Assembly: GCA_947304065.1 (NCBI GenBank)
Contig: CAMZAI010000001.1
Location: 1 to 38,438 of the forward strand
Source of the DNA: an uncultured Clostridia bacterium
GTDB lineage: Bacteria; Bacillota; Clostridia; Lachnospirales; Lachnospiraceae
DNA length: 38,438 nt
Direction of reading: 5' to 3'
Shown: piece by piece, positions 3,225 through 34,037 of the stretch
Position numbering within the stretch: the first letter of the stretch is position 1
How the letters are laid out: every line of letters begins with the position of its first letter
Made by a program: the position numbers and the translations under genes
Notes under the pieces: model-generated
Told to the model about the DNA's origin: nothing
Databases searched by the model: none
The model's input: the letters and a program-made list of their open reading frames with translations, nothing else

Positions 3225-3237
3225 CGCATAATTAAAA

Positions 3238-7094: not shown

Positions 7095-7128
7095 AAAAAA
7101 GCAGTGCGGGCGAACAGCCCGCACTTTT
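7095..7128. terminator. Bidirectional rho-independent terminator between convergent patatin and cysK genes
   Basis: Stem GTGCGGGC (7104-7111) / GCCCGCAC (7117-7124), flanked by A6 and T4. Confidence 0.7.
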
Positions 7129-7178
7129 GTTATCAGGTGGAGTATTTTATGATTGGAGAAAAACTAACTAAGCGGAGA

Positions 7179-14183: not shown

Positions 14184-14227
14184 CGCACACAAAAGGACCG
14201 GCGGATAGCGGCCGGACAGGAGAAACG

Positions 14228-15808
14228 ATGTACAAGATAATGCTTGCAGATGACGAAGGCATAGTCATCGATTCATTGAAGTTCATAATACAGAAAGAGT
14301 TCGGCGATGACTGTGAAGTGGAGTTCGCAAAGACCGGACGCAATGTCATAGAGCTCGCGGAGACCTTCCGGCCGGATATCGCGGTAATGGACATACAGAT
14401 GCCGGGCATCAACGGCATAGACGCTATGCGTGAGATACGCAAGACCAACGACAAGGTCGTGTTCATAGTCATGTCCGCCTACGATAAGTTCGATTACGCG
14501 AAGGAAGCGATGAAGCTCGGCGCGATCGAATATATCACTAAGCCCATGGAGCGCGGCAGGATCGTATCTGCCCTCAAAAAGGCGATGGTCATGGTCACTG
14601 AGGAGAAGAACCGGCGCTCGAACGACCTGATGATCAGGGAAAAGCTCGAGACCGTCATCCCGATACTTGAAAACGGCCTGATCTACAATATCCTGTTCCA
14701 TGAGTATTTCGACGAGGACATAGACAATTACAAGACCATGCTCGGTCTCCACGCGGAGAACGCCTATATGATGGTGCTGGTATCGGGTGACGCGAAAGAG
14801 GGCAACCATATGACCAACGCCCTCGGCTCGAGCGTTAAGCTGCAGCAGAACTACAGGGAGATACGTGAGTATATCAAGCTGTATTTCAGCGGCATCGTGG
14901 GCTCGGTAATGAGCAACAAGATCGCGGTACTGGTGCCCTGCGACTATGAGGAGATGGAGTACGGCGAGAGAGTCAGGGTCATTACGAACGCGCGCGAGAT
15001 GATACATAAGCTGAGCCATACCATGGACATCGCGTTCAGGGTAGGCATCGGAAAGGTCAACAGGCTGGCCAGACAGGACAATTCCTACAGGGACGCGATC
15101 AACGCGCTGCTGATGACGACCAACACGGTCGCGCATGCCGACGATCTGCCGATAGGCTGCGATTTCGAGGGAGAATACCCGATCGATCTCGAACTGAGGC
15201 TCTTTGAGGAGATCGCGAAGGGGCGCACCGAGGCTGCGCTCAGCGTTGCGAGGGATTTCTTCGACTGGATCAAGACCAAGGACATCATGGATATCCGTCT
15301 CAAGATCCTCGAGTTCGTCATGCGCGCCGAGACCATAGCATACGAAAAGGGACTTACCTATAAGATTGAGGACCGCCGCGATTATCTGCCGACGGTCATG
15401 CGCGCGAACGACGCGGAGAGCCTATGGGAGTGGTTCAAGGACAGGCTGATATTCTCGGGCACGAGCATTTCCGAGAAAAAGACCGAGACGACAAACGATG
15501 TCGTGGAGGCGTCAAAAGCCTATATCGAGGCCAATTACACAAAGAACATCACGCTCGACGACCTGTCGATGGCGGTAAACATCAGCTCGTATTATCTGAG
15601 CCGCATATTCAAGGAAAACACGGGCGAGAATTTCATCGATTACCTGACCAGACTGCGCATAGAGCACGCGAAGGAGCTGCTTTCAACCACTCAGTACTCG
15701 ATGAAGGAGATAGGCGTCATGTCCGGGTATTCGGACCCGAACTATTTCAGCAAGTCTTTCAAGAAAAACGTGGGTGTGACTCCCACGGAGTACAGGGAAG
15801 GCAAATGA
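14228..15808 (+). CDS. Response regulator with an AraC-type HTH output (YesN-like)
   Basis: Receiver domain (MLADDE, DIAVMDIQMPGINGID). C-terminal AraC HTH (YYLSRIFKENTGENFIDYL, GYSDPNYFSKSFKK). Confidence 0.92.
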   Translation: MYKIMLADDEGIVIDSLKFIIQKEFGDDCEVEFAKTGRNVIELAETFRPDIAVMDIQMPGINGIDAMREIRKTNDKVVFIVMSAYDKFDYAKEAMKLGAIEYITKPMERGRIVSALKKAMVMVTEEKNRRSNDLMIREKLETVIPILENGLIYNILFHEYFDEDIDNYKTMLGLHAENAYMMVLVSGDAKEGNHMTNALGSSVKLQQNYREIREYIKLYFSGIVGSVMSNKIAVLVPCDYEEMEYGERVRVITNAREMIHKLSHTMDIAFRVGIGKVNRLARQDNSYRDAINALLMTTNTVAHADDLPIGCDFEGEYPIDLELRLFEEIAKGRTEAALSVARDFFDWIKTKDIMDIRLKILEFVMRAETIAYEKGLTYKIEDRRDYLPTVMRANDAESLWEWFKDRLIFSGTSISEKKTETTNDVVEASKAYIEANYTKNITLDDLSMAVNISSYYLSRIFKENTGENFIDYLTRLRIEHAKELLSTTQYSMKEIGVMSGYSDPNYFSKSFKKNVGVTPTEYREGK

Positions 15809-15830
15809 CCGGATAACGGAGGGGGAACAA

Positions 15831-16880
15831 GTGAAAAGACCGACAGCATTGGCTCTGGCCGCGATCGTGATGATTAGTGTCATGCTCGCGGGCTGCAAGC
15901 CGGGGGAAAAGACCGTTGAGAAAAACGACGGGGCTGAGGACGACCGCATCGAGATCGCGATGAGCTTCGACTCGTTCGTCATCGAGCGCTGGCAGCGCGA
16001 CAGGGACGTTTTCGTTTCTACCGCAAAGGAGCTCGGAGCCACCGTTAATGTCCAGAACGCTAACGGCGACGTTGAGAAGCAAAAGGAACAGATAGAGTAT
16101 TTTATCAAAAAGGGCGTTGACGCCATCGTTATTGTCTGCATAGATTCCGACTCACTGAAGGAGACCGTTCAGAAGGCAAAGGATGAGGGGATCAAGATCA
16201 TAGCCTACGACAGGCTGGTAACCAACGCGAACGCGGATCTGTACATTACCTTCGATAACGAGATGGTCGGCACGATGATGGCCGAGGCTCTGGCAGCAAA
16301 CGGGGCTGAGGGCGGAAACGTGCTGATGCTGCAGGGCTCGCCGCATGATAACAACGTTCCGGCCGTGGAAAAGGGATTTAAGGCAGTCTGCGCCAATAAG
16401 GGAATGAGCATTGCCGACGCCATTTTCTGCGACGGCTGGAGGGCAGAGATCGCGGGGGAGTACATCTATGAGAACGAGGATATCGTAAAGAGCGTTGACG
16501 GCATAATGTGCGGAAACGACAACCTCGCGGGACAGGTTATCAGGGCTCTGTCGGAGAAGAGACTGGCGGGAGAGATACCTGTGGTCGGGCAGGACGCGGA
16601 CCTCGAGGCATGCCAGAGGATAGTCGAGGGCACCCAGGCGATGACCGTGTACAAGCCGGTCGAAAAGCTCGCGAAGCGTGCGGCTGAGTGCGCGATCGCG
16701 CTGGTAAAGGGCGAGAGCATATTCAGCGCCGATCTGTCCACGATAAACGACGGGACCTACGATATCAGGTATATAGGCCTGACGCCGATAGCGGTCACAA
16801 AGGAAAACCTTGATGAGGTCATCATAGGCAGCGGCTTCCATCTGAAAGAGGATGTTTATCTGAACGTGCCGGAGGACTAA
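15831..16880 (+). CDS. Sugar-binding lipoprotein, XylF-like periplasmic binding protein
   Basis: Lipobox LAGC. The type-I PBP pattern (GVDAIVIV, GIKIIAYDRL, VVGQDAD) resembles D-xylose-binding proteins. GTG start after GGAGGGGG. Confidence 0.87.
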   Translation: MKRPTALALAAIVMISVMLAGCKPGEKTVEKNDGAEDDRIEIAMSFDSFVIERWQRDRDVFVSTAKELGATVNVQNANGDVEKQKEQIEYFIKKGVDAIVIVCIDSDSLKETVQKAKDEGIKIIAYDRLVTNANADLYITFDNEMVGTMMAEALAANGAEGGNVLMLQGSPHDNNVPAVEKGFKAVCANKGMSIADAIFCDGWRAEIAGEYIYENEDIVKSVDGIMCGNDNLAGQVIRALSEKRLAGEIPVVGQDADLEACQRIVEGTQAMTVYKPVEKLAKRAAECAIALVKGESIFSADLSTINDGTYDIRYIGLTPIAVTKENLDEVIIGSGFHLKEDVYLNVPED

Positions 16881-16900
16881 TGGTAATTTTTTGCGTTTTA

Positions 16901-16943
16901 AAATGCAGTGCATGACAAAAAAGTGCACTGCATTTCTTTTTTT
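16901..16943 (+). terminator. Rho-independent terminator
   Basis: 12-bp stem AAATGCAGTGCA / TGCACTGCATTT followed by a T-run. Confidence 0.75.
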
Positions 16944-17051
16944 CAAAGGCAAGTGGGTAAAATAATCAAGATTCGTAAAAATTAATTCCTACCGGGGTAT
17001 GGTATGCTTTTTTTGCAACAATTATTCACCACTATTTCAGGAGGGCATTTT

Positions 17052-18116
17052 ATGAAAAAGATTGTAGTTTTATTACTTGTTCTGGTAATGGGACTTTCGA
17101 CTCTGACCGCATGCGGTAAGAAGTCGGGCGGAACCAAGGTCGGCGTTTCGATGCCTACCAAGGATCTGCAGAGATGGAATCAGGACGGCGACAACATGAA
17201 GAAGAAGCTTGAAGAAGCAGGTTACACCGTAGATCTTCAGTATGCTTCGAATCAGGTTGAGACTCAGGTTTCACAGATCGAGAACATGATCAGCTCGGGC
17301 TGCAAGGTTCTGGTTATCGCATCTATCGAAGGCGATTCACTCGGAACAGTTCTTGAGCAGGCAAAGGAAAAAGGCATCAAGGTTATCGCTTATGACCGCC
17401 TTATCCTGAACTCCGACGCAGTTACCTACTATGCTACATTTGATAACTACATGGTAGGAACCAAGCAGGGCGAGTACATTGAGTCACAGCTTAATCTGAA
17501 GAGCGGCGCAGGCCCCTTCAATATCGAGCTCATCACCGGTGACCCCGGCGACAACAACGCAAGATTCTTCTTCGGCGGCGCTATGGACGTTCTTCAGAAG
17601 TACATCGACAACGGACAGCTCGTTGTAAAGTCCGGCCAGAAGGATTTCGATACCGTTGCAACACAGAGCTGGTCGACAGAGAACGCACAGAACAGATTTG
17701 ACGCTATCATTTCCGCAAACTATGCAGACGGAACACAGCTTGATGCTGTTTTGGCTTCCAACGACTCAACCGCTATGGGCGTTACAAACTCACTTGAAGC
17801 CAACTATGCAGGAAACCACAGCAACTGGCCCATCATCACCGGTCAGGACTGCGATATCGCAAACGTTAAGAACATGATCGCAGGCAAGCAGGCAATGTCG
17901 ATCTTCAAGGATACCCGTGACCTCGCTGCAAAGACCGTAGAGATGGTTGACGCTATCATGCAGGGCAAGGAAGCTCCCGTTAACGATACCAAGACCTATA
18001 ACAATGGAGTGCTCGTTGTTCCTTCATACCTTTGCGAGCCTGTATTCGCAGATGTTAACAACTACAAGAAACTGCTTATCGACTCGGGCTATTACAAGGA
18101 GTCAGATCTTCAGTGA
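17052..18116 (+). CDS. chvE: Multiple-monosaccharide ABC transporter substrate-binding lipoprotein (ChvE-like)
   Basis: Lipobox LTACG. VGVSMPTKDLQRWNQDG and KVIAYDRLI are typical of ChvE-type binding proteins. ATG at 17052 after AGGAGGG. Confidence 0.88.
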   Translation: MKKIVVLLLVLVMGLSTLTACGKKSGGTKVGVSMPTKDLQRWNQDGDNMKKKLEEAGYTVDLQYASNQVETQVSQIENMISSGCKVLVIASIEGDSLGTVLEQAKEKGIKVIAYDRLILNSDAVTYYATFDNYMVGTKQGEYIESQLNLKSGAGPFNIELITGDPGDNNARFFFGGAMDVLQKYIDNGQLVVKSGQKDFDTVATQSWSTENAQNRFDAIISANYADGTQLDAVLASNDSTAMGVTNSLEANYAGNHSNWPIITGQDCDIANVKNMIAGKQAMSIFKDTRDLAAKTVEMVDAIMQGKEAPVNDTKTYNNGVLVVPSYLCEPVFADVNNYKKLLIDSGYYKESDLQ

Positions 18117-18137
18117 TCAATAAATAACACGGAAGGG

Positions 18138-18159
18138 CAGGCGGGCTTTGTCCCGCCTG
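18138..18159 (+). terminator. Intra-operon hairpin between the binding-protein and ATPase genes (partial terminator or stabiliser)
   Basis: Stem CAGGCGGG / CCCGCCTG with a 6-nt loop. Only a short T-tract follows. Confidence 0.4.
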
Positions 18160-18199
18160 TTAATTCTGAACAGATATGAAAAGAAAGGGAGGATTGAAA

Positions 18200-19726
18200 T
18201 TGGCTAAGATATTGCTTGAAATGAGAGACATAACCAAGACCTTCCCCGGTGTTAAAGCGCTCAGCAACGTTAATCTTAAGGTGGAAGAAGGCGAGATCCA
18301 CGCCCTGGTCGGCGAGAACGGCGCCGGAAAATCCACACTGATGAATGTCTTAAGCGGAATATATCCGTACGGTACTTATGAGGGAGACATCGTCTACGAC
18401 GGTGAGGTTTGTAAGTTTAACAAGATCAAGGACAGTGAAGCAAAGGGAATAGTTATCATTCACCAGGAGCTGGCACTGGTTCCTTATATGACGATCGGCG
18501 AGAACATGTTTCTCGGCAATGAACGCGGAAGCAAATTCCGCATTAACTGGAACGAAACGAATGAGCTTGCGGCGAAATACCTGAAAATGGTCGGCTTGAA
18601 TGAGTCTCCGCAGGTTCTGATTAAAGATATAGGTGTCGGTAAACAGCAGCTTGTAGAGATCGCGAAGGCCATGGCCAAAAACGCGCGTCTCCTTATCCTT
18701 GACGAGCCCACCGCGTCGCTTAACGAGGAGGACTCCAGGGCACTTTTGGACCTTCTGCTCAAGTTCAAGCAGAACGGACTTACTTCTATCATCATTTCAC
18801 ACAAGCTGAACGAGGTTTCTTATGTTGCGGACAAGATCACGGTCATCCGTGACGGCTGCACGATCGAGACGCTGGACAAGAATGTCGACGATTTCTCCGA
18901 GGCACGCATCATCAAAGGCATGGTAGGACGAGAGATCGCGGATCGTTTCCCTAAGCGTGAGAAACACATCGGAGACATCAAGCTTGAGGTAAGGAACTGG
19001 ACCGCTTATCATCCTCTCTATTCCGGACGCAAGGTTGTCGACAATGTCAACTTCAACGTGCGCAGGGGCGAGATCGTGGGCATATCCGGACTCATGGGCG
19101 CGGGACGTACGGAGCTCGCGATGAGTCTTTTCGGAAAGAGCTACGGCGACAATATTTCCGGACAGGTATTCATTGACGGCAAGGAAGTTCACATGAATAC
19201 CGTTAAGGAAGCGATCGCTCATAAGCTGGCTTACGTTACCGAGGACAGAAAGGGCAACGGACTTATCCTTTCCAATACGATTAAGCTCAACACGACACTG
19301 GCTAATCTGGAAGAAGTAAGCTCACACAGTGTCATCGACAAGGACAGGGAATTCGCGGCTGCGGACGACTACAGGAAAAAGCTTTCGATCAAATGTCCTT
19401 CGGTTGAACAGAACGTAGGCAATCTTTCGGGCGGAAACATGCAGAAGGTGCTTCTCGCCAAATGGATGTTCGCAACGCCGGATATCCTGATACTCGACGA
19501 ACCCACGAGAGGTATAGATGTCGGCGCCAAGTATGAGATCTACTGCATTATGAACCAGCTGGTGGCAGAAGGAAAATCGGTCATCATGATCTCTTCAGAG
19601 ATGCCCGAGATACTCGGCATGTGTGACAGGATATACATAATGAACGAAGGCAGAATGGTAGGTGAACTTGATGCTTCCGAAGCTTCTCAGGAAGCCATCA
19701 TGTCGCATATCATCAAAGCCGGTTAA
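18200..19726 (+). CDS. gguA: Sugar ABC transporter ATP-binding protein with duplicated NBDs (GguA/MglA/XylG type)
   Basis: Walker [14 protein letters not shown] signatures in both halves, and [10 protein letters not shown] typical of GguA. The TTG at 18200 follows AAGGGAGG by 7 nt. The ATG at 18176 has no RBS. Confidence 0.9.
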
Positions 19727-19742
19727 TTAGTGAGGTTGAAAA

Positions 19743-20930
19743 ATGACAAATACTAAACTGCTTGAATTTACAAAAAAATATACGATGATCATCGTACTTG
19801 TCCTGGTATTCGGACTGTTTGCCATTTTGACCGGAGGAAGCATCCTGCTCCCCGCAAACATTTCAAATATCATCTCACAGAACGCGTACGTATTCATCCT
19901 CGCGACGGGCATGCTGCTCTGTATCCTGACAGGCGGAAACATCGATCTTTCGGTAGGTTCTGTAGTATGCTTCGTAGGCGCTGTCGGAGCGAAGCTGATG
20001 GTAGAGCTTAAAGTCCCGATGATCCTTACGGTACTCATCATGCTGGTCGTAGGTACTGCGATCGGCGCATTCCAGGCCTTCTGGATCGCTTATGTAAGAA
20101 TTCCTCCGTTCATTGTTACCCTGGCAGGCATGCTTGCATTCAGAGGCTTGAGCAACGTAGTCTTAAACGGTCTTACCATTTCGGTCAAGGAATGTACTTC
20201 CTTCGTTAATCTGTTCGGAGGCGGTGCAAACTGCTACATTCCGGATGTCTTTAATTTCGGCGGGATCAACGGATTATGTCTTATCGTAGGCATTGTCTTT
20301 GCGGCACTGTATGTTGTGCTGGAGCTTAAAAAGAGACTTACGAAGATCAAAAAGGATTATGAAGTCGAGTCTGCGGTTTCATTCTGGGTCAAGACAGTAC
20401 TCATTGCGGCGGTTATTTTTGCATTCGCGTTCAGACTGGCTCAGCACAAAGGAATTCCGACGGTACTCATCTGGGTATTCCTGGTGATCCTGATCTACGG
20501 ATATATTACCTCTAACACTACAGTGGGACGTTCGTTCTATGCGGTCGGCGGTAATGAGAAGGCTACCAAGCTTTCCGGTATCAATACCAATAAGGTTTAT
20601 TTCCTCGCATATACCAACATGGGCCTTCTTGCGGCACTTGCGGGAATGGTTACCATCGCGCGTCTGACTTCGGCTCAGCCGACTTACGGACAGAACTACG
20701 AGATGGACGCGATCGGTTCCTGCTTTATCGGCGGCGCTTCGGCTTACGGCGGAATCGGTACCGTTCCCGGCGTTATCGTTGGTGCGGTCCTCATGGGCGT
20801 TATCAATATGGGTATGTCCCTGATGGGCGTTGATGCGAATATGCAGAAAGTTGTAAAGGGTATGGTTCTTCTCGCGGCCGTTATCTTCGATGTAGTATCG
20901 AAGCGCGGCAAGTGGTTTGCAAAGGGCTGA
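19743..20930 (+). CDS. gguB: Sugar ABC transporter permease (GguB/XylH type)
   Basis: 395-aa polytopic protein with the ribose/xylose-family permease pattern (GGNIDLSVGS, TSAQPTYG). Confidence 0.9.
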   Translation: MTNTKLLEFTKKYTMIIVLVLVFGLFAILTGGSILLPANISNIISQNAYVFILATGMLLCILTGGNIDLSVGSVVCFVGAVGAKLMVELKVPMILTVLIMLVVGTAIGAFQAFWIAYVRIPPFIVTLAGMLAFRGLSNVVLNGLTISVKECTSFVNLFGGGANCYIPDVFNFGGINGLCLIVGIVFAALYVVLELKKRLTKIKKDYEVESAVSFWVKTVLIAAVIFAFAFRLAQHKGIPTVLIWVFLVILIYGYITSNTTVGRSFYAVGGNEKATKLSGINTNKVYFLAYTNMGLLAALAGMVTIARLTSAQPTYGQNYEMDAIGSCFIGGASAYGGIGTVPGVIVGAVLMGVINMGMSLMGVDANMQKVVKGMVLLAAVIFDVVSKRGKWFAKG

Positions 20931-20956
20931 TTACTGTTTCTTCATAATTTTACGGG

Positions 20957-20990
20957 GGACCGGGTAAAACCGGTCCTTCGTATTTTTTTT
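20957..20990 (+). terminator. Rho-independent terminator
   Basis: Stem GGACCGG / CCGGTCC with loop GTAAAA. A T8 run ends at 20990. Confidence 0.75.
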
Positions 20991-21084
20991 GGAAAGATTG
21001 CAGAAAAAAAAGAATGCGCTATAATGCAAGTAGAGGGGATTAACGCGCCTTGCACGATGCGTATAAAAGAGGAGGCAGTATCCG

Positions 21085-24000
21085 ATGAATAAGTGGAAGA
21101 CATGGCATATCGTTCTGTTTGTAGCAATGTGCGTAAGCTTAAATGTTGGCGGCAGACTTTTGGCGGTCAAATGGGAGCTTCCGCTCTGGGCAGATTCATT
21201 TGGGACTGCTCTTTGCGCGTATATCGCGGGTCCTGTATGCGGCGCCGTGGTCGGACTGACCGGCAATCTGGCGTACAGCGTGGTCAATAACTTTTCTGCT
21301 GCGTATTCCGTAACCAGCATCGCATTGGGCATAATTGTGGGCATGGCCGCGAAGCACAGATGGTTCGATCAGTTCTACGGCTTCATGAAGGCTGCTTCCC
21401 TCGCAGTGCTTACCGCGCTGATCGTATCGGTGCCCGTGAATATCATCCTTAACGAGGGCCTTACCGGCAATAAATGGGGCAACGGCGTCATTGCCTATCT
21501 CCTCGGAAAGAGATGGCCGGACCTGATCTGCTCAATACTTGGCCAGCTGGCCATCGAGTTCCCCGATAAGGTGCTCACGATCGCCGCTGTTTATATAGTA
21601 ATTCTTATCAGGCGAATCCACCGCAGCCGCAGTGCAGAAGAAACCTTAAAGCACGATGCGGAGGTAGCTTCGCTTGCGCTTCTTTGTGTTCTTATAGGCT
21701 TTTCTTCGCCGGTGAGTGCGAGTGCGGCAGCTTCAGCCGAAACAACCGACTATAACGATTATGTCCAGAGCGTCTACAGCAGCAATAACGGACTTCCCTG
21801 CGGTGAAGCCAACGATATCGCGCAGACGAACGACGGCGTGCTCTGGATCGGTACATACGCGGGACTTTACCGCTATAACGGACGTGAGTTTCGCTGGGTA
21901 GACAACTACGAATCCGTTAAGAATGTCAACTGCCTTTACGTGGATCAGGAGGGACGTCTCTGGATCGGTACGAACGATAACGGTCTGGCGATCGCTATCC
22001 GCGAGAAGGTTGTAAATGTGCTCGATCAGTCGAGCGGACTTCCTTCCAATTCGGTCAGATGCATTATCCGTGCCGAGGACGGCTATTATTATGTCGGAAC
22101 CACGGGCGCGATGCAGATACTCGAGATGAATAACGGTCTGAAGGCCGTGAAAACGCTGGATGATGTCAATTACGCGGACAGCATTACCGCGGACCGCCGG
22201 GGCTATGTGGCGGCGATCGCTTCCGACGGCAGGATGTTTCTGTTGAAAGGCGGACAGATACTTACTTCACTGCAGCTGCCCGACGGGCAGGATATCTTCA
22301 ACTGCTGCGCGTTCGCACCCGGAGGCACGCTGATGGTCGGCACTTCGACCAATCATATCTACTGCTACGATGTTTCGGGAGATGAATTTAAGCAGATCAG
22401 CGTCACAACATGTGAGGATGTTGCAAGCATCAACAATCTGAACTATCTGGATGATGGAACACTGTTCATATCCACCGACAGCGGCATATCCTACATTGAT
22501 ACGACCGGCTACCATAAGCTGAATACAAACGATTTCAATAACTCGATCGACAACATGCTCTATGACTACCAGGGCAATCTCTGGTTCACTTCCTCCAGAC
22601 TCGGACTGCTGCGCCTTGCAAAGTCCCCTTTCAAGGATGTGTACGGTTCTGTGGGAATGGAGAGAAGAGTTGTCAATGCGATCGTTTTCTGGGAAGGCGA
22701 CTATTACATCGGCACCGACAAGGGACTCGACGTAGTGGATAAGGCCTGCAGGAACGAAATAGAGAACGATCTGACAAAGGAACTGGAAGGCAAGCGTATC
22801 CGCTGCATGTACGTGGACGGACGCAATCATCTCTGGGTCTGCACCTACGGAAGCGGTCTGATGGAGTATGCACCGAACGGCGAGTCATGGTCCTACAACG
22901 CCGAGAACGGAAGCTTCGGAAGCCGCGCGAGACTGGTTACCGGACTTTCGGACGGAACTATTCTGGCAGCAGGCGATACGGGCATCAGCTTCATAAAGGA
23001 TCATAAGATAGAGCGCACCATCAGCAACGGGGACGGACTGATCAATTCGATGATCCTGACGGCTACCGAAATGAGCGACGGAACTATCCTTGCAGGCACG
23101 GACGGCGACGGTATCGCAGTCATTAAAGACGGCGCGGTAACCAGAATGCTGACGCGCGACGACGGCCTAAGCAGCGGAGTTATCCTGCGTACGGTAAAGG
23201 ACACGAAGTCCGAGGGCGTGTTCGTTGTTACAAGCAACAGCCTGTGCTATCTCGGACCGACCGGTCTGATCACGGTACTCGATAAGTTCCCTTATTTCAA
23301 CAACTATGACATCTGGGTAAAGGATGAAGATACGCTCTTTGTTATGTCCAGCGCCGGAATCTATGTCGTGGAGCGCGACGAGCTCGTGTCGGGCGGCGAT
23401 ATGGTCTGGGAGCTTCTGGACGCGAGAAGAGGTCTGGGTACATCCCTTACGGCGAATTCCTGGAACTATTACAACGGCAAAGGCGAGCTGTTCCTTCCCT
23501 GCGATACCGGCGTATACAAGATCGACGTGGATAAGTATAACAGCGATGTGCGTTCTTACCGCATGCAGCTGGCATCGGTACGTCTGGAAGATGTTCTGCA
23601 GCCTCCCGTAAGAGCGGGAGCAATCACGGTCGGGCAGGGTGTTACCCGTATCGAGCTGAGCCCCGAGATACTGAATTATACGATCCAGGAGCCCAATGTC
23701 GGTTACCGTCTTGACGGTTTTGACAGGGAGGGGTATTGGACGATAGTGCCCCAGAGCAGCCTGGGCAATATCAATTATCCAAATCTTCGCGCAGGAAAAT
23801 ATACCTTCCGCCTTGCGATCTTTGACAGTGCGGGAGAGAAGGTGCTTGAGGAGCGTACCTTTGAGATAGTAAAAGAGGGCGAGTTCTATGAGAAGCCCGG
23901 GTTCACCACATATATGCTGCTGGTTCTTTCAGCCTTCATCGTATGGGTCACATGGATGACGGTGCAGAGGCAGCTCAACAAGCAGCAGATCAAGCTGAAT

Positions 24001-24744
24001 ATGGCCAATGAAACAGTCATGGCCATAGCGAACGCAGTCGATGCCAAGGATGTGCGTACACATCAGCATTCGCAGCGTGTTGCCGAGTATTCGGAGATGA
24101 TCGCGCAGGAGATGAACTGCTTCAAATGGTGGGAGCGCAGAAAAGCTCTTTCCAACCTTAAAAAGGCTGCGCAGATGCACGATATCGGTAAGATCGGTAT
24201 CCCCGACAGCGTACTGAACAAGGTCGGGCGACTGACCGACGAAGAATACGCGAAGATGAAGTCGCATGTAATACGCGGTGCCGAGATCCTGAAGGATTTC
24301 ACGCTCGTTGAGCATGTTGAGGACGGAACGAAATACCATCATGAGCGCTATGACGGACGCGGATATCCCGAAGGCCTCGCAGGCGAGCAGATCCCGCTGT
24401 TCGCAAGGATCATCGGGGTGGCGGACGCATTCGATGCGATGACTTCAAACCGTGTTTACCGCAACCACATGGACACCGATTATGTAATGAATGAAATGAA
24501 GCGCGGAAGGGGAACACAGTTCGATCCCGATGCACTGGACGCGTTCCTTCGTCTGGTCGACAAAAATGTGATAAATCTGGAAGAACTCTACGCGCAGAAG
24601 CGTGCCGAGATACAGGCGGCGGAAGACGAAGAGGCGCAGGAAGAACTCCGGAGACGTGTGGAAGAGGATAAGAAGATACAGGCTTCCGAGATGCAAAGCG
24701 GCGGAAAGAGCGATCCTACCGACGAGAAAGGAGAGAAGGCATGA
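21085..24744 (+). CDS. Multidomain HD-GYP protein: N-terminal polytopic membrane module + Reg_prop beta-propeller repeats + Y_Y_Y domain + TM + HD-GYP c-di-GMP phosphodiesterase domain
   Basis: Repeats such as NDGVLWIGTYAGLYRYNG and DQEGRLWIGTNDNGL. Y_Y_Y-like YRLDGFDREGYW..AGKYTFRL. HD-GYP motifs MHDIGK and HHERYDGRGYP. About 185 N-terminal residues form roughly 5-6 hydrophobic helices. Confidence 0.9.
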   Translation: MNKWKTWHIVLFVAMCVSLNVGGRLLAVKWELPLWADSFGTALCAYIAGPVCGAVVGLTGNLAYSVVNNFSAAYSVTSIALGIIVGMAAKHRWFDQFYGFMKAASLAVLTALIVSVPVNIILNEGLTGNKWGNGVIAYLLGKRWPDLICSILGQLAIEFPDKVLTIAAVYIVILIRRIHRSRSAEETLKHDAEVASLALLCVLIGFSSPVSASAAASAETTDYNDYVQSVYSSNNGLPCGEANDIAQTNDGVLWIGTYAGLYRYNGREFRWVDNYESVKNVNCLYVDQEGRLWIGTNDNGLAIAIREKVVNVLDQSSGLPSNSVRCIIRAEDGYYYVGTTGAMQILEMNNGLKAVKTLDDVNYADSITADRRGYVAAIASDGRMFLLKGGQILTSLQLPDGQDIFNCCAFAPGGTLMVGTSTNHIYCYDVSGDEFKQISVTTCEDVASINNLNYLDDGTLFISTDSGISYIDTTGYHKLNTNDFNNSIDNMLYDYQGNLWFTSSRLGLLRLAKSPFKDVYGSVGMERRVVNAIVFWEGDYYIGTDKGLDVVDKACRNEIENDLTKELEGKRIRCMYVDGRNHLWVCTYGSGLMEYAPNGESWSYNAENGSFGSRARLVTGLSDGTILAAGDTGISFIKDHKIERTISNGDGLINSMILTATEMSDGTILAGTDGDGIAVIKDGAVTRMLTRDDGLSSGVILRTVKDTKSEGVFVVTSNSLCYLGPTGLITVLDKFPYFNNYDIWVKDEDTLFVMSSAGIYVVERDELVSGGDMVWELLDARRGLGTSLTANSWNYYNGKGELFLPCDTGVYKIDVDKYNSDVRSYRMQLASVRLEDVLQPPVRAGAITVGQGVTRIELSPEILNYTIQEPNVGYRLDGFDREGYWTIVPQSSLGNINYPNLRAGKYTFRLAIFDSAGEKVLEERTFEIVKEGEFYEKPGFTTYMLLVLSAFIVWVTWMTVQRQLNKQQIKLNMANETVMAIANAVDAKDVRTHQHSQRVAEYSEMIAQEMNCFKWWERRKALSNLKKAAQMHDIGKIGIPDSVLNKVGRLTDEEYAKMKSHVIRGAEILKDFTLVEHVEDGTKYHHERYDGRGYPEGLAGEQIPLFARIIGVADAFDAMTSNRVYRNHMDTDYVMNEMKRGRGTQFDPDALDAFLRLVDKNVINLEELYAQKRAEIQAAEDEEAQEELRRRVEEDKKIQASEMQSGGKSDPTDEKGEKA

Positions 24745-25934: not shown

Positions 25935-25951
25935 AAAGAAATACGCATGAT

Positions 25952-25980
25952 AAAGGCCATGGGACGATCCCATGGCCTTT
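25952..25980. terminator. Bidirectional hairpin terminator between the BMP gene and the convergent dtxR-family gene
   Basis: 13-bp stem AAAGGCCATGGGA / TCCCATGGCCTTT with a 3-nt loop. Confidence 0.7.
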
Positions 25981-25986
25981 AGTTTC

Positions 25987-26367
25987 TTACTTATTTTTCG
26001 TTCCGTACTTTTTCATGTGAGCCTTGATCGCATCGAAGGTTTTGTCGCTGATATAGTGCTCGATGCGGCAGGCGTCCTCAGCGGCAGTCTCTTCGTCCAC
26101 GCCGAGATTCATGAAGAGGGTGGAGAGCACCGTGTGACGTTCGTAAATACGTTTCGCGAGTATCTCGCCCGCAGTGGTCAGTTTAAGGTAACCGTCGTTA
26201 TCCTTTTTTACCAGGCCTTCATCCTTTAAAAGCCCGAGAGCACGGCTGACAGACGGCTTTGAATAGCCGAGATAGTCGCCGACGTCTATCGCGCGGACAG
26301 CGCTCGAATTCTGTGAAAGCACATATATGGCCTCAATATACATTTCTCCCGATTCCTGCAACGCCAT
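25987..26367 (-). CDS. DtxR/MntR-family metal-dependent transcriptional repressor (short form, no SH3-like domain)
   Basis: The HTH KPSVSRAL and metal-site motif ACRIEH match DtxR-type site-2 residues (Cys, Glu, His). ATG at 26367 follows GGGAGGAGG. Confidence 0.9.
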   Translation of the reverse strand: MALQESGEMYIEAIYVLSQNSSAVRAIDVGDYLGYSKPSVSRALGLLKDEGLVKKDNDGYLKLTTAGEILAKRIYERHTVLSTLFMNLGVDEETAAEDACRIEHYISDKTFDAIKAHMKKYGTKNK

Positions 26368-26478
26368 ATCAGGGGACCTCCTCCCATATTTCCTTATTAG
26401 AAACAGTTTACCACATTGCGCCGCATCGTTCAATCGGATTGCCTAAGAAGTGATTCTAAAAAAAATATAAAATAATGC

Positions 26479-26813: not shown

Positions 26814-27035
26814 GTGAAGACACTGAGAGACGCGAAGATCGGCGAAACGGTCAAGGTAGTTAAGCTTCATGGTGAAGGCGCTGTAAAACGCAGGATCATG
26901 GACATGGGAATCACAAAACATACGGAGATCTATATCCGGAAGGTTGCACCCCTGGGCGACCCCATCGAAGTAACCGTGAGAAATTATGAGCTTTCGCTTC
27001 GTAAAGCGGACGCAGAGATGGTGGAGGTAGAATAA
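26814..27035 (+). CDS. feoA: FeoA family protein (second copy)
   Basis: LRDAKIGETVKVVKLHGEGAVKRRIMDMGI is a typical FeoA sequence. GTG start after AGGAGG. Confidence 0.9.
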   Translation: MKTLRDAKIGETVKVVKLHGEGAVKRRIMDMGITKHTEIYIRKVAPLGDPIEVTVRNYELSLRKADAEMVEVE

Positions 27036-29524
27036 TGAGCATACGTATTGCACTTGCGGGTAACCCCAACAGCGGTAAAACAACCCTGTTCAACGCACTT
27101 ACCGGATCCAACCAGTTCGTCGGAAACTGGCCCGGAGTAACTGTAGAGAAGAAGGAAGGTAAACTGAAGAAGCACGATGATGTGATCGTCACCGACCTCC
27201 CCGGAATATATTCCCTTTCTCCCTATACCCTGGAGGAAGTGGTTGCCAGAAATTATCTGATCGGAGAGCGTCCCGACGCGATCCTGAACATCGTGGACGG
27301 TACAAACCTTGAGAGAAACCTGTACCTTACCACACAGCTTACCGAGCTTGGAATTCCTGTGGTCGTAGCCGTTAACATGATGGATATCGTAAAGAAGAAC
27401 GGCGACCAGATCAATCTTGTGGAGCTGTCACGCCAGCTCGGATGCAAGGTAATGGATATCTCGGCACTCAAGGGCGACGGTATCGACGCCGCAGCGGAAG
27501 AGGCAATCAAGGCTGCAAAGAACGGAAAGACCGTTCCGCTCCATACCTTCTCCGGCCCCGTAGAGCACGCCATTGCGCATATTGAGGAAGCAGTTGTTCA
27601 CGATATGCCCGAGGAGCAGCAGAGATGGTACGCTATCAAGATCTTTGAGCGCGACGATAAGGTTCTTGCCCAGCTGAACATCCCTGCGGACAAGATGTCC
27701 CATATTGAAAATGACATTCAGGCGGCCGAAAAGGAACTCGACGATGATTCCGAGAGCATTATCACCAACGACCGTTATGTATATATCGCGGAAGTTATCA
27801 AGGCCTGCTACAAAAAGAAGAACGCGGGCGCGCTGTCGACTTCCGATAAGATCGATAAGATCGTTACAAACAGATGGCTCGGCCTTCCCATTTTCGCGGC
27901 GGTTATGTTCCTCGTATACTGGATCGCGATGGTAGGCGTGGGCGCATCCGCTACGGACTGGGCAAACGACGGCCTCTTCGGTGACGGCTGGCACCTGTTC
28001 GGCATCGGCGGAAAAGCAGCCGGTGAGGCAGCTGAGGAGTACGGCGCTGCAATGAGCGCTATCGGCGGCTATCTCGACGTTGACGTTGAAGACGAAGAAT
28101 TCGATGCAGATGCAGCGATAGAAGAACTGAAGGGCATTACCGGACCTGCGACCTCCACTGTAGAGGTTGAGGACGAGGAGACCCTCGCTGTCAGCGAAAT
28201 GACCGTATATTACGAAAACGTGCCCGAGGACGCCGATGAGGAAGAAGTTATCGGAATGTCCTTTAAGGACGCCGTTGCATATGTTGAAGAAAACGGTTTT
28301 GAAGAGCCCGATCCCGCGGATTACGGAGTATGGGTACCCGGCGTGCCTGTTCTTATCGAGAGTCTTCTCGACAAGATCGGAACCGCAGACTGGCTCAAGA
28401 GCCTTATACTTGACGGTATCGTAGCCGGCGTAGGCGCGGTACTCGGCTTTGTTCCCCAGATGCTCGTACTGTTCCTGATGCTTGCATTCCTTGAGGCGTG
28501 CGGATACATGGCACGTATCGCATTCGTGCTCGACCGTATCTTCAGAAGATTCGGTCTTTCGGGCAAGTCCTTCATTCCCATGCTGGTCGGCACCGGCTGC
28601 GGTATCCCCGGCATCATGGCATCACGTACCATCGAGAATGAGCGTGACCGCCGTATGACGATCATGACCACGACATTTATCCCCTGCGGCGCTAAGGTTC
28701 CCTTCATCGCGATGATCGCAGGCGCGATCTTCGGCGGAAGCGCATGGATCTCGACCGGCGCTTACTTCATCGGTATGGCTGCGATCATTATTTCCGGCGT
28801 AATGCTGAAGAAGACGAGGATTTTCGCAGGCGATCCCGCTCCGTTCGTTATGGAGCTTCCCGCTTACCATATGCCGACACTCGGCAATGTACTCCGCTCC
28901 ATGTGGGAGCGCGGCTGGTCCTTCATCAAGAAGGCAGGCACGATCATCCTTATCTCGCAGATCGTTGTATGGTTCCTTTCGGGCTTCGGCTTCGCGGAGG
29001 ACGGCTTCAGGATGCTTGAGGAGGATGAGATCTCGATCTCGATCCTTGCAAAGGTCGGAAATGCCATCGCATGGCTGTTCACTCCTCTCGGATGGGGCAA
29101 CTGGCAGGCAGCGGTCGCATCGTTTACAGGTCTCGTAGCTAAGGAGAACATCGTAGGTACGATGGGCGTTCTCTACGGAGGCGGAGAAGAGGGCCTCTAT
29201 GCTACACTCGCAGGCGTATTCACCGGAGTTACCGGTATGTCGTTCCTGGTATTCAATCTTCTGTGCGCACCCTGCTTCGCGGCTATCGGCGCGATCAAGC
29301 GTGAGATGAACAACGCAAAGTGGACATGGTTCGCGATCGGCTATCAGTGCGGTTTTGCTTATATCGTTGCGCTGATGATCAACCAGTTCGGCGGACTCTT
29401 CACAGGAAATGTAAGTGTGATCGGCCTGATCTTTGCCATTGCGTTCCTTGCGGCAATCATTTACATGCTGTTCTTCAAGAAGTACAGCGAAGCTACAAAG
29501 TTTACAAAGGCAGTTAAAGTTTGA
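27035..29524 (+). CDS. feoB: Ferrous iron transporter FeoB with a long acidic insertion
   Basis: N-terminal G domain GNPNSGKTTLFN, DLPG and NMMD. Membrane gate motifs GVGAVLGFVPQ and EACGYMARIAF. The start overlaps the feoA stop (TAATG). Confidence 0.95.
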   Translation: MSIRIALAGNPNSGKTTLFNALTGSNQFVGNWPGVTVEKKEGKLKKHDDVIVTDLPGIYSLSPYTLEEVVARNYLIGERPDAILNIVDGTNLERNLYLTTQLTELGIPVVVAVNMMDIVKKNGDQINLVELSRQLGCKVMDISALKGDGIDAAAEEAIKAAKNGKTVPLHTFSGPVEHAIAHIEEAVVHDMPEEQQRWYAIKIFERDDKVLAQLNIPADKMSHIENDIQAAEKELDDDSESIITNDRYVYIAEVIKACYKKKNAGALSTSDKIDKIVTNRWLGLPIFAAVMFLVYWIAMVGVGASATDWANDGLFGDGWHLFGIGGKAAGEAAEEYGAAMSAIGGYLDVDVEDEEFDADAAIEELKGITGPATSTVEVEDEETLAVSEMTVYYENVPEDADEEEVIGMSFKDAVAYVEENGFEEPDPADYGVWVPGVPVLIESLLDKIGTADWLKSLILDGIVAGVGAVLGFVPQMLVLFLMLAFLEACGYMARIAFVLDRIFRRFGLSGKSFIPMLVGTGCGIPGIMASRTIENERDRRMTIMTTTFIPCGAKVPFIAMIAGAIFGGSAWISTGAYFIGMAAIIISGVMLKKTRIFAGDPAPFVMELPAYHMPTLGNVLRSMWERGWSFIKKAGTIILISQIVVWFLSGFGFAEDGFRMLEEDEISISILAKVGNAIAWLFTPLGWGNWQAAVASFTGLVAKENIVGTMGVLYGGGEEGLYATLAGVFTGVTGMSFLVFNLLCAPCFAAIGAIKREMNNAKWTWFAIGYQCGFAYIVALMINQFGGLFTGNVSVIGLIFAIAFLAAIIYMLFFKKYSEATKFTKAVKV

Positions 29525-31176: not shown

Positions 31177-31959
31177 ATGACCAAGACCATATTGATAGGA
31201 CTGCTGATACCGTTTATCGGAACGGCTGCGGGAGCCGCCTGCGTTTTCATCCTGAAGAAGGATCTGAAGACCGGCGTCCAGAAAGCGTTATCGGGATTTG
31301 CGGCCGGCGTAATGGTTGCCGCTTCCATATGGAGCCTGATCGTTCCTGCGATCGAGCAGTGTTCCGACAAGGGAAGATTTGCATTCCTGCCCGCATTCAT
31401 CGGATTCTGGCTGGGTATCCTCTTCCTGCTTTTGCTGGATCACGTGATACCTCATCTTCACAGGAGCATCGATCAGGTGGAGGGACCCAGGAGCCATCTA
31501 ACCAGGACTGCGATGCTGGTACTGGCAGTAACGCTGCATAATATTCCCGAGGGTATGGCGGTAGGCGTAGTGTACGCAGGACTGGCAAGCGGCTCGGCGA
31601 TGATCACTGCGGGCGGAGCACTGGCGCTCGCGCTCGGAATAGCGATACAGAACTTCCCGGAAGGCGCGATCATATCGATGCCTCTCTACGCGGAAGGAAA
31701 AAGTAAAAAGAAATCATTTGTGCTCGGGATGCTCTCCGGTGCCGTTGAACCGATATTCGGAGGAATTACGGTACTTCTTGCGGGACTGATCGTGCCTGCG
31801 ATGCCGTATCTGCTCTCTTTCGCTGCAGGAGCGATGCTCTATGTGGTAGTAGAAGAGCTGATCCCCGAGATGTCGGCCGGAGAACATACAAATATCGGCG
31901 TAGTGGCCTTTGCACTGGGCTTCAGTATCATGATGGCGCTTGATGTCGCGCTGGGATAA
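31177..31959 (+). CDS. ZIP family divalent metal (zinc/iron) transporter, ZupT-like
   Basis: ZIP signatures LHNIPEGMAVG and IQNFPEGAIIS. 260 aa, about 8 TM segments. RBS GAGGAGG. Confidence 0.92.
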   Translation: MTKTILIGLLIPFIGTAAGAACVFILKKDLKTGVQKALSGFAAGVMVAASIWSLIVPAIEQCSDKGRFAFLPAFIGFWLGILFLLLLDHVIPHLHRSIDQVEGPRSHLTRTAMLVLAVTLHNIPEGMAVGVVYAGLASGSAMITAGGALALALGIAIQNFPEGAIISMPLYAEGKSKKKSFVLGMLSGAVEPIFGGITVLLAGLIVPAMPYLLSFAAGAMLYVVVEELIPEMSAGEHTNIGVVAFALGFSIMMALDVALG

Positions 31960-32959: not shown

Positions 32960-33034
32960 ACTGTCTTTGTTATTTGATATATTATATATAGTGATATGCT
33001 CAGACAGTTATTGCTATACGGAGGCAGGGAAAAT

Positions 33035-34015
33035 ATGAAGACGGCTGTTTTGATCGACAATTCCATACGCAGTCTGTTCCAGATGATTGTGCTGGTGGAT
33101 GACAATACCGGTCGGTATGTGATAATAGATTATAACCCGGAGTTCGGGAATATACCCACGGGTTCCGACGGGGACGAAAAGCGCGGTTCCTTTGAGGTGC
33201 TGTGCAAAAGCTTTAAGAAGTTCATTCATCCGGAGGAAAGGGATGAATTCAGGATATTCACCACCCGGGACAATTATGTGAAAAGGCTGGAGGATCACGT
33301 GCATATTTCCATGGAGTGCCGGATAAGGCACTCCGACAGGAAATATTACTGGTCCGAGATCATTATGTGCAACACTGCCGCGGAAGACAGCACCGAGGGC
33401 AATGACTGCATTTTCATGATAAGGGACATACATGAAAGGAAGACCGCGGAGCTGGCCCGCGAAGCGGAAGACCGGGCGATCCTGAAGAAGCTTCAGGACA
33501 AATACGACAAGCTCTTCGAAGAGAATATGACGGATCAGCAGACCGGTTGCTATAACCGCAAAGGTCTCAAGTATTATTCGGAGATCGTTATCGACGACGC
33601 GAAGAACACCGGCAGGGATCTGTTCGTGTGCGTTGCGGATCTGAACGGATTAAAGTATCTGAACGACACTTTCGGACATGCTGCGGGTGATGAAGCGATC
33701 AGCGTAGTGTCAAGCGAACTTAGAAATGCGGCTCCGACCGGAAGCAAAGCGGTCCGTCTCGGCGGCGACGAGTTCCTTCTGTTTGCAGCGGTCGATCCGG
33801 AAAGCAGCGAGCCGGAAGAATTCTCCGAAAAGGTGGATGCGGCGATCGAGGCGTATAACAAGGCACATTCCAATCCCTATACGGTCGGCGTAAGCTACGG
33901 ATGGGCACTGTTCCCCGCAAAGGAAGGGATGACCTGCCTGGACGAATACATTGAGATCGCCGATCAGAAGATGTACGAGATGCGCGTACAGCGCGACCAA
34001 TACAGAAGAGATTAA
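33035..34015 (+). CDS. GGDEF-domain diguanylate cyclase with an N-terminal PAS-like sensory region
   Basis: Intact GGDEF (RLGGDEFLLF, codons at 33761-33775). DLNGLKYLNDTFGHAAGD lies upstream of it. ATG at 33035 after GGAGG. Confidence 0.9.
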   Translation: MKTAVLIDNSIRSLFQMIVLVDDNTGRYVIIDYNPEFGNIPTGSDGDEKRGSFEVLCKSFKKFIHPEERDEFRIFTTRDNYVKRLEDHVHISMECRIRHSDRKYYWSEIIMCNTAAEDSTEGNDCIFMIRDIHERKTAELAREAEDRAILKKLQDKYDKLFEENMTDQQTGCYNRKGLKYYSEIVIDDAKNTGRDLFVCVADLNGLKYLNDTFGHAAGDEAISVVSSELRNAAPTGSKAVRLGGDEFLLFAAVDPESSEPEEFSEKVDAAIEAYNKAHSNPYTVGVSYGWALFPAKEGMTCLDEYIEIADQKMYEMRVQRDQYRRD

Positions 34016-34037
34016 GGATGCCGGGGGAGAGATTGTC

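Follow-up and report, generated by a model that had tools for sequence, protein, structure and literature searches.

Membrane sensors can work together with accessory binding proteins, as in the analogous pairs LuxP-LuxQ, TorT-TorS and ChvE-VirA, and the sensors of Bacteroides hybrid two-component systems (HTCS) are dimeric. The fold of S-components, the membrane subunits found in ECF (energy-coupling factor) transporters, has been reused in receptors, which was published for the 5TMR-LYT kinases LytS, BtsS and YpdA (Partipilo & Slotboom 2024, PMC11109136). A 2021 survey of HD-GYP proteins states that none of those with an extracytoplasmic sensor had been the subject of experiments. The gene described here brings such elements together. 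It lies at 21085..24744 on the plus strand of a stretch of 38,438 nucleotides (the window) from contig CAMZAI010000001.1 of an uncultured Lachnospiraceae bacterium (assembly GCA_947304065.1). It encodes a 1219-amino-acid protein with an S-component-like membrane module, an extracellular beta-propeller sensor and an HD-GYP domain, and overlaps a gene for a Bmp-family protein. Together, the two genes probably encode a membrane receptor complex that tunes the breakdown of cyclic di-GMP (c-di-GMP) to extracellular cues. The confidence in the anatomy of this system is much higher than in the overall reading, while it is lower for each of the individual inputs.

Architecture of the operon

The product of the ATG-initiated open reading frame (ORF) was analysed with Pfam profiles and hydropathy. 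HD_5 was found at residues 982-1149 (E 4e-38) together with HD (E 1.5e-21), five Reg_prop repeats were detected (E 4e-22), and Y_Y_Y at 873-929 reached 29.1 bits (cutoff 26.6). Hydrophobic segments lie at residues 8-29, 38-60, 70-89, 97-126, 155-175, 192-218 and 938-962. ORF, Pfam matches and topology thus agree with the fusion of a membrane module, a Reg_prop/Y_Y_Y sensor and an HD-GYP output that an earlier note on this DNA had described, and both motifs quoted there, MHDIGK and HHERYDGRGYP, are present in the protein. Its remark that this copy carries extra N-terminal residues also proved right, as a 1066-amino-acid paralogue at 33951..37151 has no N-terminal module.

The ORF and the gene following it form a predicted two-gene operon with terminators on either side. 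The GguB gene upstream ends at 20930, 5' of the first terminator stem. The candidate promoter was not listed by a consensus scan because its -35 hexamer matches at only three of six positions. No known RNA or riboswitch was found in the 5' region when the whole window was searched with Rfam at the gathering threshold; the sole match in the window at this threshold was a tRNA-Ala with the anticodon CGC at 3152..3225. The features of the operon are as follows (positions in the window):

20951..20992, plus strand: intrinsic terminator closing the ChvE/GguA/GguB sugar ABC (ATP-binding cassette) operon, with a 13-bp stem (20951-20982, 8 GC pairs) followed by TTTTTTTT (T8)
20998..21025, plus strand: candidate promoter, TTGCAG, 16-nt spacer and TATAAT, proposed from reading the sequence
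21070..21075, plus strand: ribosome-binding site AGGAGG, 9 nt 5' of the ATG, from the sequence
21085..21642, plus strand: S-component-fold module of six helices, residues 1-186 (NF045596, AlphaFold, Foldseek, invariant residues)
21643..21738, plus strand: basic cytoplasmic linker and signal-anchor helix, transmembrane helix (TM) 7, residues 187-218, the fusion/fission junction (hydropathy, low pLDDT over 182-218, split loci)
21739..23559, plus strand: extracellular tandem beta-propellers with Reg_prop repeats, residues 219-825 (Pfam, PDB sequence matches, Foldseek)
23560..23889, plus strand: Y_Y_Y immunoglobulin-like domain, residues 826-935 (Pfam at 873-929; modelled as a beta-sandwich that falls inside the alignment with the periplasmic domains of HTCS)
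23896..23970, plus strand: TM8, residues 938-962 (hydropathy; in the AlphaFold model a single helix 940-988 running into the HD-GYP domain)
24028..24561, plus strand: HD-GYP phosphodiesterase domain, residues 982-1159 (Pfam HD_5, PDB matches, residue mapping)
24562..24744, plus strand: charged helical C-terminal tail, residues 1160-1219, and stop codon (sequence; predicted helices at 1165-1199), no domain match over these residues
24741..25934, plus strand: Bmp-family partner gene, 397 amino acids, ATGA overlap with the stop of the first gene (Pfam Bmp; ribosome-binding site AGGAG at 24729-24733)
25951..25990, plus strand: intrinsic terminator ending the two-gene operon, 14-bp stem (25951-25981) containing 7 GC pairs, then a T-rich tail

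The N-terminal module is related to ECF S-components

The first ~185 residues, for which a resemblance to an S-component had been noticed by eye, are by profile and predicted fold homologous to ECF S-components of the CD3073/QrtT-like lineage. Residues 11-174 aligned with positions 2-166 (of 174) of the NCBIfam profile NF045596, the CD3073 family putative ECF transporter S component, with an E-value of 9e-17. The score of 61.3 bits is significant, but below the equivalog cutoff of 180 bits. Neither PF12822 (ECF_trnsprt; 12.1 bits, E 0.19, cutoff 30.7) nor PF07694 (5TM-5TMR_LYT; 16.5 bits, E 0.006, cutoff 24.6) reached its threshold. A literature search for 'CD3073' returned nothing relevant.

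The fold was predicted with AlphaFold for residues 1-230 with an alignment of 36 sequences, a check that the earlier note had suggested. The model had a pLDDT above 90 over residues 10-175 and comprised six helices at 6-29, 39-64 (with a kink at G49-P50), 75-90, 97-122, 130-141 and 146-186. All of the ten best Foldseek matches in the PDB were ECF S-components, namely RibU from T. maritima and S. aureus, ThiT and FolT, with probabilities of 0.94-1.0 and TM-scores of 0.52-0.64 (normalised to target length). Beyond these ten, the probability was 0.15 or less, with the exception of PanT, which is also an S-component.

An exhaustive HMMER search with residues 1-191 against 1.84 billion cluster representatives yielded 737 relatives with E ≤ 1e-3, of which 257 reached E ≤ 1e-10. 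They fall into three length groups, that is, stand-alone proteins of 150-260 amino acids, proteins of intermediate length (often fragments) and large proteins of ~1175-1260 and 1500-1630 amino acids. A profile search with the module alignment gave mostly fragments at contig ends and few named stand-alone S-components. The module is marked by N20 and the motifs LPxWxDSxGT (33-41), GxTGNxWG (125-132) and (D/E)FxDK (158-162). Among 29 modules that are 25-65% identical, D37, G40, T41, G49, N129, W131, D161 and K162 are invariant. A generic anchor of several transmembrane helices, which the earlier note had set against its own proposal, is ruled out because polar residues stay invariant down to 25% identity, and the homology to S-components points the same way. 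Only the sensor-coupled clade has GxTGNxWG, which connects helices 4 and 5 as a loop motif and is absent from the transporter relatives; it was found in 31 of 32 representatives longer than 1000 amino acids and in 46 of 59 of stand-alone length. For docking to EcfT, S-components use an AxxxA motif in helix 1; the window module has A14xxxS18 there, which is not conserved in the clade (judged from the alignment only).

The module accompanies propeller sensors

S-component-like modules of this kind are recurrently coupled to Reg_prop sensors, either fused to them or encoded as a separate gene. Reg_prop was found in 40 of the 48 multi-domain representatives that bear the module. The outputs in these 48 comprised hybrid histidine kinases with HisKA/HATPase_c/receiver (nine), Hpt (six), HD-GYP (eight) and GGDEF (two). 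Three independent stand-alone relatives (P0307, P0209 and P0313), 31-32% identical to the window module, each lie directly 5' of, and overlap, a gene for 1132-1357 amino acids. After P0307 and P0313 this is a Reg_prop hybrid kinase according to Pfam; the one after P0209 has no Pfam record. The products of all three large genes start like residues ~176-260 of the window protein, with basic residues leading to a TM anchor and the same propeller opening motif. Since the large genes of the split loci start there, the point of fusion or fission is placed exactly between helix 6 of the module and the signal anchor of the propeller.

The company of the transporter relatives is a different one. The stand-alone homologues carry PF12822 and score 67-195 bits with NF045596, and a true member of the CD3073 family (195 bits) adjoins a fused EcfT-EcfA-EcfA' gene. 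At this locus (L093, 6001-8716), the CD3073 S-component stands beside a 708-amino-acid fusion of CbiQ/EcfT with two ABC ATPase domains, the two forming a compact dedicated ECF transporter. More distant PF12822 relatives show the gene order nucleoside hydrolase, S-component, 229-amino-acid gene. They were seen at L005/L006 (3974-6264) and L094 (4015-6252), between a gene for an inosine-uridine nucleoside hydrolase and the overlapping 229-amino-acid gene. The latter has a weak radical-SAM match in L005/L006 and no Pfam match in L094. The cluster QueK/QrtT/QueL for queuosine salvage has the same gene order (PMC11130926). In the clade of the window protein, the modules are fused or adjacent to Reg_prop sensors instead of EcfT/EcfA or salvage genes, although a shared ECF module may be encoded elsewhere in the genome. 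We infer that the module was diverted from transport and became a subunit of propeller receptors, for sensing or for signal modulation.

It could also be that the module is a structural scaffold of S-component ancestry, which anchors, dimerises or stabilises the receptor and binds no ligand, while the propeller, with or without the Bmp partner, does the sensing. MreD has the S-component fold in a non-binding, scaffold-type role (PMC11109136), the GxTGNxWG loop is predicted to be cytoplasmic and away from the canonical extracellular pocket, and proteins without the module exist in the form of the window paralogue and at four further loci (L171-L174, see below). Such a role accounts less well for the invariance of the polar or charged residues D37, T41, N129, D161 and K162 within the membrane and in loops at 25-65% identity, and for the motif at the junction of loop 1 and helix 2, which lies at the substrate site of S-components and at the NxR site of the 5TMR kinases. 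Furthermore, the module is kept with three types of output, even where it is split off into its own gene, which points to a specific role over and above that of an anchor, given that the propeller protein brings an anchor helix with it. A pure scaffold is therefore regarded as unlikely, although it deserves to be taken seriously, and a subunit that contributes to sensing or to its modulation is preferred.

Distribution of the receptor family

The receptor family is widespread in rumen and gut Lachnospiraceae. Full-length homologues fall into at least 120 protein clusters with 76-94% identity and ~100% coverage, mostly from metagenome-assembled genomes of Lachnospiraceae/Clostridia and annotated only as 'HD domain-containing protein'. 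In a scan with one genome per GTDB species, for which a five-sequence subset of the module alignment served as query, relatives of the module were encoded in 329 stretches. The statistics given below for species-representative loci rest on the best 80 of these 329, which are nearly all from rumen Lachnospiraceae/Butyrivibrio, and the genomic context was drawn from homologues, the exact window protein being absent from the contig index. The best 80 loci contain 72 complete ORFs, 70 of which encode 1200-1299 amino acids, and 71 of the 72 have both HDxGK and GYP. Cultured carriers are Lachnospiraceae bacterium G11, AC3007, AB2028, YSD2013, KH1P17 and XBB2008 as well as Butyrivibrio sp. FCS014 and XPD2006. 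Many contigs of human-gut metagenomes belong to the wider family, which is 40-47% identical to a distant representative. The phylogenetic survey that had been recommended therefore showed a recurrent architecture, and at least 120 clusters of homologues and 72 complete ORFs mean that it is neither a one-off nor an assembly artefact.

The Bmp-family partner

The partner gene product matched Pfam Bmp (PF02608) with an E-value of 1.4e-25 and 90.3 bits (cutoff 24.1). Its closest structures are 3S99 from Brucella (E 3e-25), in which adenine was modelled, and guanine-bound AtzT (6PI5, E 2.5e-23), while the nucleoside binder PnrA is not close (E 0.19). The pocket of AtzT is formed by Tyr45, Ser97/Phe98, Glu165, Trp194, Asn218 and Asn220. 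The partner keeps Y49, E182 and W211, of which Y49 and W211 form the aromatic sandwich of its pocket, and its H235 and D237 correspond to QHTD in 3S99. A deletion of two residues takes in the Ser-Phe pair. Across 119 orthologues, none of the mapped pocket positions varies, except for one H235Y. This residue pattern suggests a pocket of purine type. The partner begins with a conserved TM anchor, and within ~8 residues of it the binding fold sets in with its first strand; a canonical lipobox was not found.

The partner directly follows the receptor gene in 70 of 71 evaluable species-representative loci, with an identical overlap of 4 nt in 62. At the lone exception, the first gene is truncated and the partner is still present further downstream. 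In the wider family, 71 of 74 evaluable loci have the adjacency. The flanks differ entirely between homologous loci and the partner, which the earlier note had overlooked, is the only constant neighbour.

Some related loci deserve mention. At L160, L161 and L165 (main gene at ~3935-7567), a subclade of S-module/propeller/HD-GYP proteins of 1194-1203 amino acids is followed by unrelated ORFs, with no Bmp-like gene downstream. At the metagenome loci L171-L174, a 934-amino-acid propeller/HD-GYP gene and a Bmp-like partner overlap (4079-6883 and 6840-8111 in L171), and no ORF for an S-like module was found in the upstream flank, which covers ~4 kb in L171 and less than 140 nt in L172-L174. The absence of the module from these four could be a true loss or reflect a disrupted gene. 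Taken together, the exceptions indicate that the partner tracks the propeller/HD-GYP core, and the S-like module tracks Reg_prop sensors generally. The homologous locus L003/L004 has, immediately behind the Bmp-like partner and convergent with it, a gene for a further HD_5/HD protein of 751 amino acids (11917-14172, minus strand); close by are genes for a hybrid kinase and a diacylglycerol-kinase-like protein.

Databases annotate the partner as 'BMP family ABC transporter substrate-binding protein'. With its Bmp fold and intact pocket, and with three wider-family loci that lack it, it might be an ordinary binding protein that serves a nucleoside or purine ABC importer encoded elsewhere and is merely co-transcribed with the receptor. 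This is considered improbable. A pair of ABC permease and ATPase genes within 6 kb of the partner was found at none of the 71 loci, translational coupling through the 4-nt overlap is kept in 62 of 71 species and the adjacency across a divergence to ~45% identity, and in place of a lipoprotein signal the protein has a TM anchor and a linker of only ~8 residues. It has also diverged at a rate similar to that of the receptor (~77% and ~78% identity among orthologues, respectively). A precedent for a sensor partner exists in B. subtilis with Med, a lipoprotein of the Bmp family. Going by the title of work by Banse et al. from 2011, which PMC11210211 cites, Med is required for KinD signalling. A dedicated partner of the receptor is thus the preferred role for this protein.

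The extracellular sensor and its link to the cytoplasm

Behind helix 6 of the module, a basic loop (RRIHRSRS) leads to the signal-anchor-like TM at ~192-218, which is followed by an all-beta region (225-935) and the TM at 938-962. Residues ~219-935 matched the HTCS sensor structure 4A2L by sequence with E 6e-26, along with 3V9F and 3OTT. A near-full-length AlphaFold model (mean pLDDT 78, pTM 0.52) was searched with Foldseek, and the extracellular region aligned with 3V9F and 4A2M/4A2L over ~780 columns at E ~1e-30 and TM-scores of 0.65-0.71 (target-normalised). The region consists of Reg_prop repeats, a Y_Y_Y domain and a tandem-propeller fold between two TM helices, as is characteristic of HTCS-type sensors; the kinship with Bacteroides hybrid systems that had been proposed for it holds both by sequence and by fold. 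As the identity to the Bacteroides sensors is only 16-17%, their ligands cannot be transferred to it. TM8 is predicted as one continuous helix from 940 to 988 that passes over into the opening helix of HD-GYP; neither HAMP nor any other relay stands between the two.

The HD-GYP output domain

Its closest solved relatives are PmGH (4MCW, E 4e-39), V-cGAP3 (5Z7C, 2e-38) and PA4781 (4R8Z, 5e-29). Seven of the eight metal ligands of PmGH are kept, as H189, H221, D222, H250, H276, H277 and D305 correspond to H995, H1032, D1033, H1061, H1085, H1086 and D1114. The GYP residues are G1093, Y1094 and P1095 within HHERYDGRGYP, and K1036 and R1123 align with K225 and R314 of PmGH. All of these residues (seven ligands, GYP, K1036 and R1123) are invariant in 120 orthologues. 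The eighth ligand, the third-metal glutamate E185 of PmGH, is replaced by R991; the position is Arg in 115 and Leu in five of the 120 orthologues and never acidic. The catalytic set that the earlier note had read from the motifs is hence present except for this glutamate. Its absence marks the binuclear class, whereas enzymes of the trinuclear class can carry pGpG on to GMP (Galperin & Chou preprint). The domain is assigned to the binuclear class because of R991, and the trinuclear class was rejected on the same residue. It is predicted to be active and, lacking the third-metal Glu, to yield mainly pGpG.

A GGDEF gene (32996..34015, 339 amino acids) and a second HD-GYP protein, the Reg_prop/Y_Y_Y/HD-GYP paralogue at 33951..37151, are encoded in the same window, so c-di-GMP signalling is present. 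The paralogue is 31% identical over residues 229-1167 of the receptor and lacks an S-like module as well as a Bmp partner. The TTG given as its start codon is probably due to the ORF finder, an artefact, as the signal anchor MSRFNFGRKKIVILF begins ~28 codons further in, just past the stop of the GGDEF gene. The position of PmGH E185 is Tyr in this protein.

The domain probably degrades c-di-GMP, to judge by its conserved residues. Another substrate such as 3'3'-cyclic GMP-AMP (cGAMP) has to be weighed, as has a role exerted mainly through protein-protein interactions. V-cGAP3 scored almost as well as PmGH, and PA4781, a binuclear enzyme that is said to be weak on c-di-GMP, aligned less well. 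Some HD-GYPs hydrolyse cGAMP and some act through protein-protein interactions, as a review states. Nevertheless, these options appear distinctly improbable, given that the metal ligands, GYP and the residues aligned with K225/R314 are all invariant, that GGDEF genes occur in the window and at related loci, and that HD-GYPs are described as the predominant c-di-GMP hydrolases in clostridia (Galperin & Chou preprint).

Proposed mechanism

In the preferred reading, occupancy of the propeller domain by a ligand would shift the packing of a receptor dimer. The ligand could be a polymer fragment by analogy with the Bacteroides sensors. Docking of the ligand-loaded Bmp-like partner on the receptor would add a further input, and the S-like module possibly another one, so that receptor and partner may comprise three input modules, one more than the two ligand inputs suggested in the earlier note. 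Along the unbroken TM8 helix, the change would reach the opening helix of the HD-GYP domain and switch the hydrolysis of c-di-GMP, most likely to pGpG.

Several observations weigh against this reading. The full-length model is a monomer of moderate confidence (pTM 0.52) with a disordered TM7 region (182-218), and the Foldseek E-values of the module, taken by themselves, are weak (0.03-0.5), even though the matches rank cleanly and in agreement with the sequence evidence. The N20, LPxWxDSxGT and DK motifs are common to the sensor clade and the transporter relatives and may stem from requirements of the fold instead of marking a sensing pocket. Both groups likewise keep G23xxxA27 of helix 1 (from the alignment only), so the protein may still dock to an ECF module. 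The partner is missing from three wider-family loci, and four keep it without a detectable S-module. Finally, the substrate is possibly cGAMP because the E-value of the cGAMP-specific 5Z7C nearly equals that of PmGH among the closest structures.

A bolder version is a three-part receptor derived from transporters, in which the Bmp protein captures a purine-like compound, the S-module binds the same or a related ligand, and both gate the double-propeller receptor that sets c-di-GMP hydrolysis. S-like module and propeller would then be a general, previously unrecognised Firmicutes cassette with kinase, GGDEF and HD-GYP outputs. The nearest transporter relatives of the S-module include clusters that resemble those for salvage of queuosine precursors (7-deazapurines). 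As a whole, this proposal is speculative and rather unlikely.

A further option is that the module still works as a transport subunit, which would make the protein a transceptor: the module would import a micronutrient with a shared ECF module, and the rest would report the same or a related compound. Shared ECF modules are general in Lachnospiraceae. The module is homologous to S-components of the PF12822/CD3073 families, and the family-wide motifs and G23xxxA27 are retained as in the transporter relatives. The sensor clade, however, has K/R at position 24 beside the helix-1 motif where transporters have G/A, the scores are far below the cutoffs (61 versus 180 with NCBIfam, 12.1 versus 30.7 with Pfam), and the clade is linked to Reg_prop sensors and not to EcfT/EcfA or salvage genes. 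Transport by S-components requires toppling in the membrane (PMC11109136), to which a tether of ~10 residues to a TM helix and a 700-residue extracellular domain appears ill-suited. Ongoing transport is consequently considered very unlikely, and the receptor complex with a diverted S-like module is preferred.

Neighbouring genes

The complete unit for sugar sensing and uptake at 11660..20930 upstream of the operon comprises an SBP (substrate-binding protein)-like sensor partner, a histidine kinase of the LytS/YesM type with a HAMP domain, an AraC-type response regulator, an XylF-like SBP and the ChvE/GguA/GguB multiple-monosaccharide ABC transporter, all three of which scored above their NCBIfam cutoffs. 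That the receptor belongs to this unit and senses a related glycan or monosaccharide is highly improbable and the functional tie was rejected: the adjacency stated in the earlier note is real, and characterised Bacteroides Reg_prop/Y_Y_Y sensors bind glycans (e.g. BT4663 with heparin, according to structure-entry descriptions), but a strong terminator separates the units and the upstream neighbours are wholly different in other genomes, with GguB in two and ChvE in none of 80 related loci. A glycan ligand for the propeller is possible independently of the ABC locus.

Downstream, the operon is followed by genes of metal homeostasis. A DtxR/MntR-type repressor is encoded convergently with the operon (25987..26433, minus strand), FeoB with 829 amino acids at 27035..29524 (plus strand) and a ZIP-family transporter at 31177..31959 (plus strand). 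This neighbourhood is of possible interest because HD-GYP activity depends on Fe2+/Mn2+.

Comparison with known systems

Among the described systems, 5TMR-LYT (PF07694) is similar in the use of a six-helix S-component fold in signalling proteins, whose outputs include c-di-GMP enzymes and hybrid kinases, and in a conserved polar motif at the junction of helices 1 and 2 that faces the canonical pocket. The two differ in several respects. An extra N-terminal helix, H0, is present in 5TMR-LYT, while helix 1 of the window module starts at residue 6 with no H0 before it, and the NxR motif there contrasts with LPxWxDSxGT here. By sequence the window module stands nearer to genuine S-components of PF12822/CD3073, it precedes a TM helix and a 700-residue extracellular sensor instead of being wired directly to the output, and modules of its type are also encoded as separate genes. 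Membership in 5TMR-LYT was rejected on the missing H0, the missing NxR and the score of 16.5 against 24.6 bits. The main text and two supplementary files of PMC11109136 make no mention of a propeller, Reg_prop or HD-GYP.

S-components of the CD3073 (NF045596)/QrtT-like (PF12822) type share homology, length and the six-helix fold with the module, as well as N20, LP..D..GT and DK. They stand beside EcfT/EcfA or salvage genes, whereas the window module occurs with Reg_prop sensors, and the window clade is set apart by its GxTGNxWG loop, K/R at position 24 and scores below the cutoffs.

The Bacteroides HTCS sensors BT4663, BT3049 and BT4673 (4A2L/4A2M, 3V9F and 3OTT) have the tandem propellers and Y_Y_Y between two TMs in common with the window protein. 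They signal through histidine kinase, receiver and AraC domains, while HD-GYP is the sole cytoplasmic domain here. The host is a Gram-positive-type Lachnospiraceae, and an S-like module and a Bmp-family partner are added.

With PmGH (4MCW, trinuclear) and PA4781 (4R8Z, binuclear), the output domain shares the HD and GYP motifs and seven metal ligands. It differs from PmGH by Arg or Leu in place of E185 across the family, and from both by a membrane receptor instead of a GAF or REC input.

Accessory binding proteins as in Med-KinD or LuxP-LuxQ resemble the partner as tethered proteins of a binding-protein fold without a transporter of their own, the interaction being putative in the case of the window. 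They differ from it in that the sensor here has an HD-GYP output and the coupling consists in a conserved operon of overlapping genes.

The combination of S-module, propeller and HD-GYP is mentioned neither in the main text of the HD-GYP architecture survey nor in the other literature searched, where the one further paper found dealt with a genetic toolbox for Prevotella copri. As a receptor with an S-component fold has already been published for 5TMR-LYT, the concept is not new. The S-like module serves a large extracellular sensor as an add-on or partner subunit, rather than being the only sensor joined to the output, and represents a second sequence lineage of S-component-fold receptors. 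The family extends these receptors to a lineage that is still related to real transporter subunits, and its fused and split forms make the transition from transporter to receptor directly testable. As cultured isolates are available, the family is an accessible point at which to start. Through the orphan Bmp-type partner, a small molecule, possibly a purine, becomes a candidate input for the control of c-di-GMP in fibre-degrading gut bacteria, in which attachment and biofilm behaviour matter functionally.

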